Part shown: positions 11,168 through 20,035 of the stretch, piece by piece
Layout of the letters: each line of letters opens with the position of its first letter
How positions within the stretch are numbered: position 1 is the stretch's first letter
Assembly: GCA_946414595.1 (NCBI GenBank)
Contig: CAMKPE010000010.1
Coordinates: 134 to 64,133 of the forward strand
Length of the DNA: 64,000 nucleotides
Source: an uncultured Clostridium sp.
Lineage (GTDB): Bacteria > Bacillota_I > Bacilli_A > RF39 > UBA660
Direction of reading: 5' to 3'
Program-made: the position numbers and the translations under genes
The notes under the pieces: generated by a model
What the model was told of the DNA's origin: nothing
Seen by the model: only the letters and a program-made list of their open reading frames with translations
The model's database searches: none

Positions 11168-14100
11168 TTAGAAAAACATTGAAGTATTAGAATTTTCTTC
11201 TTTATTTGTTTCTTCTTTTACTTCTTTTTTCTTTTCGCCTTTTTCTTCATCTTCTTCTTTGTCTTCTTTATCACCAACTAATCCAGTTAATCCTAATCCT
11301 GCTGCACCTGCTGCTAATCCTGCTAGAGCACCAAGGGCTGCTGAACTTTGTCTAGTTTCCCCATTTATATTATACATAGCATCAAGTCCAGTATGTGGTC
11401 CATTTCCATCATAACCTCCATATCCTCCATATCCACTATCAGATGAATAAGAATCTGTAAACCATGGATTTGGATTATATGTTCTTGGTTCTGTTGAAAT
11501 TGTTGGAGTTCCAGAACGTCCTTCTGTACCTTGTTCTATTCCACTTTCTGTTTGTCTCTCAGAATGACTTTCAGTATGACTTTCAGTTCCTGGTTCTCCA
11601 GTTCCTCTTTCAGTGCTTCTTTCAGTACTTCTTTCAGATCTTCTCTCAGTACTTCCTTCAGTACTTCCTTCAGTACTTACTTCAGTACTTGTTTCTCCAG
11701 TTTTTCTCTCTGTACTCTTTTCACTACTTTGTTCAGATGTTCTTTCAACAGACTTAACTTCAAAATGATCAGGAATTGAAGAATATTCTTCTGGGAATAT
11801 TTCTCTTGCATAACCTATTGGAACGATTTCTCTTTGATCCCAAATAGTTACATCTGTACCTATCTTCTTTCCAGTTCTATCGAAGCACGCTACTCTTATT
11901 GTTCCTGTTAATGGATCAAATTCTCCAGTTACTGCATATATGTATCCATGTGCATCATCGTGAAGAATAACATCTCCTACTTTATAATCAATTACTACAC
12001 TGTGTCCACTTTCATCGACGCCATAATATCCATGCAGTGGCGTTATAACCGGCATCTGCGAGTAATCTTCAAATAATTTAATTACACTATCGTGACTCGA
12101 CGCATCACCATGAAGCAATAACGAATCTTTACTTTCAATCCATGAAGATCTATCCTCTAAATTAACTCCACGCCTATTTTTGAATCCATCTCCTACGAAG
12201 AATGATTCAAATGTATTTAGAGTTTGTTCAAAACTTACTATTTTATAATATTTATCAAGCATTTCTAAAAAGTCATCATTACATTTTTCTTGTTGAGGAA
12301 TAATATAATTGTTTATAAGATGTTCTTTTGCTTTTTCCAAATTATTTTTTTCTTTTAGTTTTGTCTCTACAGTAATATTATCTCTATTCCAGTCTTGAAC
12401 TCTTAAAGTATAATCACTGTCAGTTTCATCATCTTTTTGTACTGGCTTACTACCCACTTTTTCTTTTGCTTGATTATATGCTTTTGTTGCGTCAGATAAT
12501 AATCTTTCTAATTCACGCAAGTTACATCCCCATGAAGCTGCTCCAGCCGATGTTAAATAAGTTACGTCACTAGGGCAACCATCTACTAGAGAATAATCTT
12601 TATCTCCAATCCCCTGTCCTTTTAAATGGAATAATCTATCTTCTGAAGCCTTTAATGTAATAAGACAATCACATAACTCATCCAAAGATTCACATGCAGG
12701 TTTTAATGCGCTTTCTATATTTCCCATTGTTACTTCGAACTTACCTATTATAGTTTCAATGGCTTCTTTTTCGCTTTTACTTGCGCTACCTTCCCATCTT
12801 TGAAATTTTTCATGTGCAAGTTGAACTTGTTTCTTAAGTTCCTCAACTTCTTCCATTAAGTCATTTACAGTATAACCCCATTTTTTTTCATCAGGGAGTC
12901 CTAATTCTTTATATTTTTGTTCATAAATTGTACCATAAAAGTATTTATCTGGATATTGTTCTCCAAATTCATATCCATTTGCCTTCAAGCTATCAACCAT
13001 TAACTTCAAATCAGATACATTATACTGCCCAGTTGCTGCATATGTTGCTATATAGTCAATTGGACTAAACTTACTTGAACTAGTTCTTCCTAAAGGATTT
13101 CCAGTAACTTGCATTATTTCAAGTAGTCTTTCATTATTTGCTAATGTTGTTCTTTGAGCATTAGCACCCCCACTAGTTATTCCTGCATCGTATGATCCTG
13201 CTTCCTTTGCAGTACCATCCTTGTTCATATTTCCAAACGCACCCCATCCAGCATTATCACTACCTGTCGTTTGGGTTACGTGTGTTTCATGCATATATTC
13301 ATCATGCACATCAGGTCTATCTACTGATCCTACACCATTTTCTTTATTTATTGCTTCTGTTGCCCATGGCATTACAGAATCAGCACTTATTCTATCTCTT
13401 TCTTCACTACCTGAAACTTTATCTGGATCTAATCTATGTGTTGCTAGCAATTTTGCTTTTTCTTCTTCTGGTAATGAACTAAAATTATATTCTCTTTCTA
13501 AATAAGCTTCTAACCCTTCTTGTTTATCAAAATATCTAATTGGTTGATTTTGACCATTTGAATCTTTTTCATATTTTAACACATACGATCCATGCTCTTC
13601 AGATGCAGCTTCATTATTAGACAAAGCAACATATCCATCTGTTTTAATATGGTAATTGTCATGTCCTACTGCACGAATATTCGTTGCTATTGCTTCTGAT
13701 CTTCCAACAGTATCTGTTAATTGCATTATTGGATCATCCGGATTATCAGAATGTAATTCTGTTATAGTTGCACCTGTGATAGGATTTTTATGATCAGTAT
13801 CAGTAATAGCAAATAATGCATAATTGCCATCTTCATCTGGTAATATTTGTCCTTCTAATGGTTCCCCACCATCAACATAATATGTAACACGTCCCAAAAA
13901 AGTACGACCATCGCTAAATTTATAAGCACCTGAATCTCTCTCCCAAGAAGAACCATTAAATCTAATTCCTGGATAACCATGAGCCGAATATACCGTAGCA
14001 GAATCGTCAAATCTTGCAGTTCCTTTGACTTCAGTAAAAGCCGTTATATGTGCCTTTGAAGGGTCAATAGGACCAGTAGACTCACCAATTGGTTGCAACT

Positions 14101-14485
14101 CATAAGAGTTTTGTCCCTCTTTTTTTACAATAATACCTTCATGTGTAACTCCATCGCCCAATTGATATTCTACTCTTCCAGTATAATGCTCTACGCCATC
14201 ATCATTCCAACACTCATCAAAGTTAGCCCAAGTAGCACGAGTATATAATACTGGAAAAGCATTTCCAGATTGAATCCCAAAATTAGCTCCTGTTCCTCTT
14301 GAATCATCAATAATATCATATACATGCGTATCAGTACTATTTGCAGCAGTTGGATCAAAGCTCATCCTTGTTGATTCATCTCCAACCATTGCTCCAGGAA
14401 CTGGTCCTGAACCTGCCATTGGATCTGTTACTATCATTTCAGTATCTTCAGTTGTTGTAGTTATGGTTTCATCACTCATAACCAC
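11168..14485 (-). CDS. Giant paralog A, 1105 aa. Large secreted or surface protein of unknown function.
   Basis: Shares long conserved blocks with 14601..18245. Central WxG-like helix QRWEGSASKSEKEAIETIIGKFE. STE/TEGS tandem-repeat linker. C-terminus ...NGPHTGLDAMYNINGETRQSSAALGALAGLAAGAAGLGLTGLVGDKEDKEEDEE. Own promoter, strong RBS aggaggtgtggtt, own terminator. Confidence 0.7.
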   Translation of the reverse strand: MVMSDETITTTTEDTEMIVTDPMAGSGPVPGAMVGDESTRMSFDPTAANSTDTHVYDIIDDSRGTGANFGIQSGNAFPVLYTRATWANFDECWNDDGVEHYTGRVEYQLGDGVTHEGIIVKKEGQNSYELQPIGESTGPIDPSKAHITAFTEVKGTARFDDSATVYSAHGYPGIRFNGSSWERDSGAYKFSDGRTFLGRVTYYVDGGEPLEGQILPDEDGNYALFAITDTDHKNPITGATITELHSDNPDDPIMQLTDTVGRSEAIATNIRAVGHDNYHIKTDGYVALSNNEAASEEHGSYVLKYEKDSNGQNQPIRYFDKQEGLEAYLEREYNFSSLPEEEKAKLLATHRLDPDKVSGSEERDRISADSVMPWATEAINKENGVGSVDRPDVHDEYMHETHVTQTTGSDNAGWGAFGNMNKDGTAKEAGSYDAGITSGGANAQRTTLANNERLLEIMQVTGNPLGRTSSSKFSPIDYIATYAATGQYNVSDLKLMVDSLKANGYEFGEQYPDKYFYGTIYEQKYKELGLPDEKKWGYTVNDLMEEVEELKKQVQLAHEKFQRWEGSASKSEKEAIETIIGKFEVTMGNIESALKPACESLDELCDCLITLKASEDRLFHLKGQGIGDKDYSLVDGCPSDVTYLTSAGAASWGCNLRELERLLSDATKAYNQAKEKVGSKPVQKDDETDSDYTLRVQDWNRDNITVETKLKEKNNLEKAKEHLINNYIIPQQEKCNDDFLEMLDKYYKIVSFEQTLNTFESFFVGDGFKNRRGVNLEDRSSWIESKDSLLLHGDASSHDSVIKLFEDYSQMPVITPLHGYYGVDESGHSVVIDYKVGDVILHDDAHGYIYAVTGEFDPLTGTIRVACFDRTGKKIGTDVTIWDQREIVPIGYAREIFPEEYSSIPDHFEVKSVERTSEQSSEKSTERKTGETSTEVSTEGSTEGSTERRSERSTERSTERGTGEPGTESHTESHSERQTESGIEQGTEGRSGTPTISTEPRTYNPNPWFTDSYSSDSGYGGYGGYDGNGPHTGLDAMYNINGETRQSSAALGALAGLAAGAAGLGLTGLVGDKEDKEEDEEKGEKKKEVKEETNKEENSNTSMFF
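11560..11700 (-). repeat. In-frame 15-nt tandem repeats (ttcagtacttcc-like units) encoding the S/T/E/G-rich linker (STEGSTEGSTER...) of giant paralog A.
   Basis: Directly visible near-perfect tandem repeats of cagtacttccttcag units. Confidence 0.6.
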
Positions 14486-18916: not shown

Positions 18917-20035
18917 TTACTCACTTAGATGATTTGTATCATCTTTTTTCTCTTCTTTATTTTCAACAGCAGGGCTTGGTGTTTCGCTTACCGCTGTAAC
19001 GTTATCTTTTTTATCTTCGTCTTCTTCTTTTTCTTTATCTTTGCTTCCTGCAATTCCTGCAAGTCCTAAACCAACAGCTCCTGCTAGTCCTGCAACTGCT
19101 CCGAAGTCAACTGCTGCTTGTTTAGTTGAACTGTTTCCACTTCCTGTAGCACCATATGCTGCATTAACAAGTGGTGGATCTTCTCTATTAACAGGTGCAG
19201 ATTCACTTGATCCAGAAGATTGATTTGTTGTAGTTGCTATGATGTTTTCAGCTTGTGCACCTTGTGCAACTGCCCCAAGACCACCAATAGCTGCAAGTGA
19301 TTGAAGAGTTTCTTTTTGAGTATTTACTCCAGAAACTTGAGCTGAGTCTGAAGTAGCACTTGTATTAACTTGTCCAAGGCCAGCTTGATTAACATGTGAG
19401 TTATCAGCTCCGATTGCGCTTCCACCATTTCCATTGTTAATATTTTGCATTCCAGTATTAACAACATTTGATTCAGCGTCTACTTCAACACCTTTATCTC
19501 CGTTCTTACTAATATCTCCAATAACTTCTTTATCGATCTTAGTTCTTTGTCTATCGTGTTCGCTTCCTGCTTCACCAGTAATGTCAGTTAATCCAACTCC
19601 CTTAACAGTAGTTTCGTCTCCTTCAACATCAACGCTATCAGTAAGTTCACCTTCATTAACAGATTTATCATCCATCTTATCAAGTAATACTTTGTTATAT
19701 TCATTTGTTTCAGCATCATTGTTAGCATAGAAGTCAGTAGGTATTTCAATAGCTTCAAACTTTTCTGCACCCTTCATATCAATGCTATACATATCATTAA
19801 CGTTATTGTTAATTGTATTTTTTATTGTATTAACACTGTTACCAATTGATGAAGTTTGTTTTGATATTGTACTAATACTGTCTCCTAAAAATCCTGCTTC
19901 AATGGCAACCGAAAACTTTCCTTGCATTCCATCAACAGTACTTTGTAACTTTGTAAGTAGCTGATTGAATCCAGCAATTCCTTCATCCATTTCTGCTCTT
20001 GTCATAGAAACTTGTCTATTCCTATTACTACTCAT
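18917..20035 (-). CDS. 372-aa protein with helical N-terminal domain (possibly LXG/WXG-like). Has Asn/Gly/Ser-rich middle region and the same C-terminal Gly-zipper plus acidic-tail module as the giant paralogs.
   Basis: C-terminus AAVDFGAVAGLAGAVGLGLAGIAGSKDKEKEEDEDKKD. N-terminus MSSNRNRQVSMTRAEMDEGIAGFNQLLTKLQSTVDGMQGKFSVAIEAGFLGDSI. Own promoter. First gene of the operon. Confidence 0.55.
   Translation of the reverse strand: MSSNRNRQVSMTRAEMDEGIAGFNQLLTKLQSTVDGMQGKFSVAIEAGFLGDSISTISKQTSSIGNSVNTIKNTINNNVNDMYSIDMKGAEKFEAIEIPTDFYANNDAETNEYNKVLLDKMDDKSVNEGELTDSVDVEGDETTVKGVGLTDITGEAGSEHDRQRTKIDKEVIGDISKNGDKGVEVDAESNVVNTGMQNINNGNGGSAIGADNSHVNQAGLGQVNTSATSDSAQVSGVNTQKETLQSLAAIGGLGAVAQGAQAENIIATTTNQSSGSSESAPVNREDPPLVNAAYGATGSGNSSTKQAAVDFGAVAGLAGAVGLGLAGIAGSKDKEKEEDEDKKDNVTAVSETPSPAVENKEEKKDDTNHLSE

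Follow-up and report, generated by a model that had tools for sequence, protein, structure and literature searches.

In a 64,000-nucleotide stretch of an uncultured Clostridium sp. genome (contig CAMKPE010000010.1; hereafter the window, meaning the whole stretch analysed), three proteins of one gene cassette end in a Gly/Ala-rich hydrophobic helix followed by a tail of Lys, Glu and Asp residues. The two largest carry an invariant P-x-T-G ahead of the helix, and the gene immediately downstream encodes a protein resembling sortase B (SrtB). We lean towards reading this C-terminal module as a variant sortase sorting signal on surface proteins that have no signal peptide and are probably exported by type VII secretion, the signal being processed by a dedicated SrtB-like enzyme without the canonical catalytic Arg. 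Cleavage, wall linkage, topology and export route are steps that we infer. The cassette comprises six co-directional minus-strand genes, in transcriptional order:

18917..20035, minus strand: first cassette gene, 372 aa (open reading frame and sequence; orthologs hold the same position at all loci)
18561..18899, minus strand: WXG100 protein, 112 aa (PF06013 and TIGR03930, both above cutoff)
18263..18595, minus strand: second small WXG100-like protein, 110 aa, with W-T-G (WXG100/ESAT-6 matches below cutoff)
14601..18245, minus strand: large protein, 1214 aa (open reading frame; the sole Pfam match is a PT repeat)
11168..14485, minus strand: paralogous large protein, 1105 aa from a GTG start (open reading frame and AlphaFold2 model)
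10070..11092, minus strand: SrtB-like sortase, 340 aa (TIGR03064 and PF04203 below cutoff, PDB match, adjacency)

The C-terminal module

An earlier note, made from the sequence of the window, had described a Gly/Ala helix with a Lys/Glu/Asp tail at the end of the 1214-, 1105- and 372-aa proteins, and all three do end in this way. What they share is the helix and the tail; the full signal is found in the two large proteins, and the 372-aa protein has no PxTG. The consensus given in that note was incomplete, as it left out the GPHTG that opens the module of both large proteins. The parts of the module are as follows:

14871..14885, minus strand: sortase-type pentapeptide G-P-H-T-G of the 1214-aa protein, followed by LDAMY (P, T and G invariant in an alignment of 29 sequences)
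14760..14831, minus strand: glycine-zipper hydrophobic helix of the 1214-aa protein, STAGLGALAGLAVGAAGLGLTGLV (a nearly invariant block)
14604..14759, minus strand: Lys/Glu/Asp tail of the 1214-aa protein, 52 aa, net charge -11 (with an internal ...TPMF motif)
11387..11401, minus strand: pentapeptide G-P-H-T-G of the 1105-aa protein (from the sequence)
11273..11347, minus strand: glycine-zipper hydrophobic helix of the 1105-aa protein (from the sequence)
11171..11272, minus strand: Lys/Glu/Asp tail of the 1105-aa protein, 34 aa, net charge -6 (ending ...SMFF)
19043..19105, minus strand: Gly/Ala-rich hydrophobic helix of the 372-aa protein, FGAVAGLAGAVGLGLAGIAGS (module profile domain at aa 301-346)
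18920..19042, minus strand: Lys/Glu/Asp tail of the 372-aa protein, 41 aa, net charge -7 (from the sequence)

The spacer between TG and helix measures 13 residues in both large proteins. The extended GxxxGxxxG helix near the C-terminus is seen as GALAGLAAG (G-xxx-G-xxx-G) inside GLGALAGLAAGAAGLGLTGL. A net-acidic tail, as the earlier note had it, is found in the three window proteins and is universal in the family.

A profile hidden Markov model (HMM) of the module was built from 26 relatives, window sequences excluded, and scanned against the 719 stop-to-stop open reading frames (ORFs) of the window. It matches exactly three of them, the 1214-, 1105- and 372-aa proteins (E 2e-26, 8e-26 and 2e-12), and no further window ORF up to E=10. 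Alignment of the 372-aa module with those of the large proteins scores above all 2000 segment-preserving shuffles (z about 6). The modules of the two paralogs are 82% identical at the nucleotide level; their codon differences comprise 16 synonymous and 8 non-synonymous changes, which argues for purifying selection rather than recent gene conversion. Searched against curated NCBIfam and Pfam models, sorting-domain models included, the module sequences gave no meaningful match with E up to 10. Since no curated HMM covers the module, the proteins that carry it are annotated as hypothetical.

Distribution and conservation

The module is dedicated and rare. An exhaustive HMM search of 1.84e9 (1.84 billion) protein cluster representatives, with E up to 1e-3, matched 53 proteins, about 45 of them credible (44 were inspected). 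The credible matches are C-termini or fragments of one large-protein family, recognisable by its GKFEVTMGN, DDAHGY and WDQREI motifs, or homologs of the first cassette gene. The earlier note had proposed a dedicated anchoring or targeting module and had named the contrary outcome, a generic tail anchor scattered over many unrelated proteins; the search supports the former, the module being specific to essentially one family and to the first cassette gene. With the whole 1214-aa protein or the module alignment as query, word-index searches filled up with low-complexity candidates, gave 1 and 4 matches respectively, and missed known orthologs.

All members of the large-protein family share one order of parts: xPxTG(L/I)(D/E/N/G), a spacer of 7-20 residues (2 in one fragment, P0170), the Gly/Ala helix, and a tail with a net charge of -2 to -21. 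Tails run to 12-54 aa in full-length members and to 111 in one fragment (P0150). The uncharged Gly/Ala/Leu stretch is 19-28 residues long, with a Kyte-Doolittle 19-residue maximum of 1.36-1.82. In an alignment of 29 sequences at 20-50% identity, just 15 columns are invariant, and they include the P, T and G of PxTG and the helix glycines; the module is the most conserved block of the large protein in the family alignment. Lys and Arg average 4.15 in the first 15 residues of the tail and 0.95 in the 15 residues before the helix, the tail exceeding the upstream flank in 37 of 39 members; Asp and Glu, with a mean of 8.97, outnumber them. This asymmetry of Lys and Arg fits an N-out/C-in orientation with a cytoplasmic tail. 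A regular-expression scan of the window and related loci for canonical LPXTG signals with basic tails returned nothing usable for contrast.

Related loci were reached by two independent routes, from sortase homologs and from the large protein. At 14 of 14 distinct loci with enough sequence, the cassette consists of the helical protein, the WXG100 protein, the WXG100-like protein, one or more large proteins with the module, and the sortase, usually followed by DUF4186 and apt. Co-occurrence of the module with a specific processing enzyme was one of the checks proposed in the earlier note, and the SrtB-like gene does lie directly downstream at every one of these loci. The loci include distant ones that carry IPHTGID, MPYTGID or GPRTGIN. 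The carriers, uncultured throughout, are Bacilli or Erysipelotrichaceae-like genomes recovered from sheep rumen, roe deer, rabbit and human gut. One further candidate locus (L014, Baltobacteraceae) was discarded as a spurious PT-repeat match.

The earlier note had also set the module apart from sortase signals. That separation is not supported for the large proteins: an invariant P-x-T-G lies upstream of the helix, an SrtB-like gene is adjacent at all 14 loci, and the Lys/Arg content of the tail is above that of the upstream flank in nearly all members.

The SrtB-like enzyme

The sortase, 328 aa from its database start, is built from an N-terminal CxxC...CxxC zinc ribbon (10970-11044), an Asn-rich linker, a poly-Lys stretch, a membrane helix and the catalytic domain. 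Its closest PDB match is C. difficile SrtB (E 2e-18), and its homologs carry the NCBI name 'class B sortase'. C. difficile SrtB is reported to recognise (S/P)PxTG (PMC4155245). Against NF040525 the window enzyme scores 39 bits, with a cutoff of 200.

All 120 subfamily members keep the catalytic His224 (YGHN) and Cys320 (LQTC; 10133-10135) without variation, which speaks against a loss of activity. C. difficile SrtB uses a catalytic Arg234 (PMC4371152). The equivalent column, at the start of β8, holds Leu328 in the window protein (10109-10111), and across the 120 members Leu (47), Phe (33), Tyr (28) or Val (11). R227, R304, H279 and H322 are newly conserved in the subfamily. The enzyme may employ another residue, with R227, R304 and H322 available as conserved positions, or it may work as a protease and not as a transpeptidase.

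Sortases with the zinc ribbon go with substrate tails that have (N)P(Q/M/L)(M)F(F) at their end or close to it. Comparison of one group of loci (L003-L008, L019) with another (L009-L013, L016, L017) gave six loci with both features and seven with neither; as these loci belong to one broad clade, the co-occurrence is a lead and not a statistic. In the window the tail-end motif lies at 11171-11182 and at about 14682-14690. The pattern suggests that substrates are recognised on the cytoplasmic side.

WXG100 partners and the large proteins

The first of the two small proteins is a recognisable WXG100 protein (PF06013, 37 bits with a cutoff of 27.3; TIGR03930, 48.8 with a cutoff of 44.85). It carries WxG at residue 44 and YxxxD (YDEKD) at residue 84, and WxG (residues 42-44) and (Y/F)xxx(D/E) (residues 82-84) are kept in 8 of 8 orthologs. 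FxxxD and FxG have been reported as targeting motifs of T7SSb, the secretion system of type VIIb (PMC12744356). The second, WXG100-like protein ends in ...LDVNS, and its orthologs at every locus (L003-L017) end in (L/M/F)DV(N/V)S; such conservation could mark a signal for export or docking. We infer that the large proteins, which are encoded next to these genes, are exported by type VII secretion. In full-text literature searches, no paper connecting class B sortases and WXG100 cassettes came up.

The two large proteins are 48% identical (the database entry of the shorter one is 1103 aa long). The 1214-aa protein consists of a variable β-rich N-terminal part, a conserved helical WxG domain, a small β domain, a PT-rich linker and the module. 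Three segments upstream of the module bear on export and anchoring:

14886..15149, minus strand: Pro/Thr/Glu/Lys-rich low-complexity linker of the 1214-aa protein, a candidate wall-spanning segment (PF04886 PT repeat)
11402..11746, minus strand: Thr/Glu/Ser/Arg-rich disordered linker of the 1105-aa protein (pLDDT, a predicted score on the local distance difference test, below 50 for aa 914-1035)
12206..12868, minus strand: internal helical domain of the 1105-aa protein, aa 540-760 (AlphaFold2 and pLDDT; motifs WxG and GKFEVTMGNI)

In the AlphaFold2 model of the 1105-aa protein, aa 300-910 are predicted with confidence and show two long helical hairpins, one at aa 540-622 that has W-E-G at its turn and one at aa 656-760, together with a small β domain. 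The predicted hairpins would fit a targeting domain that pairs with the small WXG proteins. A Foldseek search of the PDB with this model returned generic long-helix matches only, all with E above 0.03. Apart from the PT repeat, scanning the large proteins, the 372-aa protein and the module with Pfam and NCBIfam yielded no useful match. The placing of a disordered Pro/Thr-rich linker ahead of PxTG matches the wall-spanning regions of anchored proteins.

In the window the large gene alone is duplicated. At two related loci (L016:389-9876 and L015:126-10304) the duplication upstream of a single sortase takes the form of two tandem cassettes or of two large paralogs, the tandem cassettes preceding one sortase in L016.

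The first cassette gene

The 372-aa protein begins with a helical hairpin (about aa 13-91, F-L-G at the turn), continues with degenerate repeats and ends in the Gly/Ala helix and acidic tail. Its AlphaFold2 model is poor (pLDDT 38), with helices at 13-46, 51-91 and 311-329. Aligned by hhalign with the WXG100 profile of the locus, the N-terminus is collinear at weak significance (E 1.6e-3, probability 16%), and a PDB profile search gave weak EsxA/EsxB matches (E 0.16-0.9); it is probably a WXG100/LXG-like hairpin, as judged from these models. The first gene carries the helix and tail only in close relatives of the window (L001-L003, L008, P0153), never with PxTG, and at the remaining loci it ends without the helix.

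After the hairpin, first-gene proteins share an IEIPxDF...NxYN..LGKIDGxSVNEG motif and then repeats of about 20 residues, (Y)DxSSxI.GxS(I/V)LGNIxxNxTxxQ; no Pfam family covers either. Just upstream of the gene, an ORF of 84 aa with two predicted membrane helices (20206-20460, minus strand) is present only where the first gene bears helix and tail (the window, L001, L003 and L008), and is a candidate partner or immunity factor. The helix and acidic tail also occur in two proteins of about 470-480 aa, P0169 (L018:4317-5759) and P0175, each with an N-terminal helical domain, two such segments and no PxTG. P0169 is flanked by several genes for proteins of about 80-105 aa and by a DUF4176 gene; the element therefore recurs in another T7SS-like context.

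Proposed mechanism

The variant signal would consist of xPxTG (GPHTG in the window), a spacer, a moderately hydrophobic glycine-zipper helix, and a net-acidic cytoplasmic tail that keeps its membrane-proximal Lys. In the proposed sequence of events, the large proteins would leave the cell together with the two WXG100-family proteins encoded upstream, through a type VII machine encoded elsewhere in the genome. The C-terminal helix would then halt transfer, leaving the Lys/Asp/Glu tail in the cytoplasm. The dedicated SrtB-like enzyme encoded immediately downstream would cut between T and G and subsequently attach the protein to the cell wall by way of the Pro/Thr-rich linker; lacking the canonical Arg, it may instead do no more than release the protein. 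The near-invariance of the helix suggests that the membrane-embedded sequence is specifically recognised, and the co-occurrence of the cytoplasmic zinc ribbon with the (N)PxFF tail end points the same way. The enzyme would then read its substrate at the cytoplasmic face or in the bilayer, a property that ordinary sortase signals do not display. The 372-aa protein, with helix and tail only, would stay anchored in the membrane and possibly pack against the helices of the large proteins. A fuller version of this scheme is more tentative, and we hold it to be possible at most: in gut and rumen Bacilli two ordinarily distinct envelope pathways would be joined, a dedicated Arg-less sortase capturing WXG100-partnered, signal-peptide-less type VII exports by reading PxTG, the membrane glycine-zipper helix and the acidic tail together, its zinc ribbon binding the NPxFF end.

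Several observations weigh against a sorting signal of this kind. The enzyme falls below the curated sortase cutoffs (TIGR03064, 84 vs 153.75 bits; PF04203, 25 vs 26.6), and neither Arg nor Lys occupies the catalytic-Arg column in any of the 120 subfamily members. The Lys/Arg-rich tail of a sortase signal is not found, the net charge being negative in every member, and the conserved spacer (LDAxY) between TG and helix is longer than usual. Since the 372-aa protein lacks PxTG, its helix and tail must have a role beyond retention for a sortase. As for export, inspection of the N-termini of the window proteins and of about 30 relatives revealed no hydrophobic h-region of a signal peptide. No EssC-like ATPase is encoded in the window, which has no other ORF above 735 aa and in which Pfam scans of the neighbours were negative, or in the flanking sequence (roughly 10 kb) of the related loci. 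The relatives all come from metagenome-assembled genomes of uncultured organisms.

Alternative explanations

The alternative that fares best, although we judge it rather unlikely, is that the module is a plain uncleaved C-terminal anchor of stop-transfer or tail-anchor type, a self-associating glycine zipper in which PxTG would have a structural or spacer role and the sortase-like neighbour would be otherwise employed, as a chaperone, a pseudo-enzyme or a protease with another target. Such an anchor would account for the helix and tail without PxTG in the 372-aa protein and its orthologs and, twice over, in P0169 and P0175, and it is in keeping with an enzyme that lacks the canonical Arg and with an acidic tail unlike known sorting signals. 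It does not account for the invariance of P, T and G among proteins at 20-50% identity, placed exactly as a sortase motif would be after a PT-rich linker, nor for the invariant His224 and Cys320 or the strict adjacency of the sortase gene.

In a second, improbable account the module is a depolarising or pore-forming toxin element whose helix would enter target membranes after export. There are established T7SSb effectors whose C-terminus has an extended glycine zipper (PMC10434224; PMC12744356), LXG effectors such as TelE, EsxX and TspA providing the precedent, and the cassette contributes WXG100 partners and, in the 372-aa protein, an N-terminal hairpin with FxG at the turn, like the LXG domain of EsxX. 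The 84-aa two-helix ORF, restricted to loci with a helix-bearing first gene, could be its immunity factor, and DUF4176 occurs at the P0169 locus. Yet no cassette protein matches LXG (PF04740) even with E up to 1, Pfam scans of 14 window ORFs showed no DUF5085-type immunity gene, and the module, far from being polymorphic, is conserved between species. Its one helix comes after a PT linker and PxTG, with a long charged tail behind it, and a toxin would leave the obligatory sortase neighbour unexplained. For the 372-aa protein itself such a role is possible.

With YidC substrates, it is acidic tails that the membrane potential helps to translocate. A reversed topology can accordingly be envisaged in which the proteins are cytoplasmic and tail-anchored, the acidic tail is translocated by a YidC-type, potential-assisted route, and the module tethers a cytoplasmic scaffold to the inner face of the membrane. 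The missing signal peptide and several conserved Cys in the large protein are compatible with this arrangement, which we nevertheless regard as very improbable. The tails are long (12-54 aa, 111 in the one fragment) and have about 4 Lys or Arg in their first 15 residues, above the upstream flank in almost every member; PT linkers and PxTG, encoded beside an extracytoplasmic sortase domain, would be pointless inside the cell; and the zinc ribbon, on the cytoplasmic side of the sortase, co-varies with the tail-end motif.

Chance likeness between low-complexity Gly/Ala and Lys/Glu/Asp segments, which their biased composition and the swamped word-index searches might invite, is refuted for practical purposes by the window-independent HMM with its three matches, the shuffle test, the exhaustive search and the module positions conserved in orthologs at 14 loci.

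Genomic context

The host is a low-GC (about 27%), walled, spore-forming Firmicute that encodes SpoVAD and a D-Ala-D-Ala carboxypeptidase. The earlier note had called the locus an island, a label that proves misleading. GC content at third codon positions (GC3) is 0.144-0.155 in the large genes vs 0.08-0.16 in neighbouring housekeeping genes; the raised GC of the large genes stems from first and second codon positions, that is, from their Gly/Ala/Thr/Pro content. The cassette lies in conserved chromosomal synteny, and on both grounds a foreign origin was rejected. On viral contigs no relatives turned up. The two small WXG genes (18263-18899) differ from all other genes measured, with a GC3 of 0.26-0.32 vs 0.08-0.16, which may reflect codon bias from high expression.

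Downstream of the sortase lies a gene for a ClpX-like AAA+ ATPase (7050-8528, minus strand; weak matches only), with a counterpart at L003:12549-14210. It is kept three to four genes downstream of the sortase at L003-L008, L012, L013 and L019, and not at L016 or L017. A role in secretion was considered and set aside, as no evidence supports it and no link to the cassette was demonstrated. Elsewhere in the window, a clostripain-family (C11) peptidase (29475-31682, minus strand) has an N-terminal double zinc ribbon and is, besides the sortase, the second envelope or processing enzyme with a zinc-ribbon N-terminus.

Significance and comparison with known systems

Should the fuller version of the scheme hold, the module would provide the first acidic-tailed sortase sorting signal, and the large proteins the first wall-anchored type VII substrates. 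If correct, the proposed reading would break three textbook rules in one conserved system: Sec entry with a signal peptide, the basic tail, and the His-Cys-Arg triad. Type VII secretion in Firmicutes would gain covalently or membrane-anchored surface proteins as an output besides released toxins. With five or six genes, the system is compact enough to make several questions testable, namely how a sortase finds a substrate that did not pass through Sec, what the charged tail does, and whether the Arg is dispensable.

The arrangement of a short motif, a helix and a charged tail read by a dedicated membrane enzyme is shared with the exosortase/PEP-CTERM, rhombosortase/GlyGly-CTERM and archaeosortase/PGF-CTERM systems, in which the helix region likewise belongs to a recognisable sequence signature. 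Their enzymes come from unrelated families, however, and their tails are basic; no curated sorting model matches the window module.

The T7SSb LXG effectors TelE, EsxX and TspA resemble the cassette in having small WXG100-like genes upstream, a GxxxG-type helix near the C-terminus and no signal peptide. As toxins these effectors are polymorphic, and they have immunity genes and a Pfam LXG domain. The window proteins, by contrast, show no LXG match, their module is conserved, and PxTG, a PT linker and a sortase are present.

Dedicated class B pairs, such as S. aureus SrtB with IsdC (NPQTN) and the LPKTxAVK-specific SrtB of NF040525, provide the model of a specialised sortase encoded beside one or two substrates. 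The window enzyme lies far below the NF040525 and TIGR03064 cutoffs, its presumed motif is different, and its substrates are accompanied by WXG100 proteins.

The C. difficile SrtB system (PDB 4UX7, 5GYJ) is the best solved relative, with an xPxTG pentapeptide and the same order of motif, hydrophobic segment and charged tail. Its substrates have Sec signal peptides and Lys/Arg-rich tails, the basic tail being part of the textbook signal (PMC4371152), whereas the window proteins have no signal peptide and a net-acidic tail. Arg234 of the C. difficile enzyme is replaced by Leu, Phe, Tyr or Val in the window subfamily. Also unlike the C. difficile system, the window family combines a nearly invariant helix with a spacer of 7-20 residues, and some of its enzymes carry a cytoplasmic zinc ribbon.

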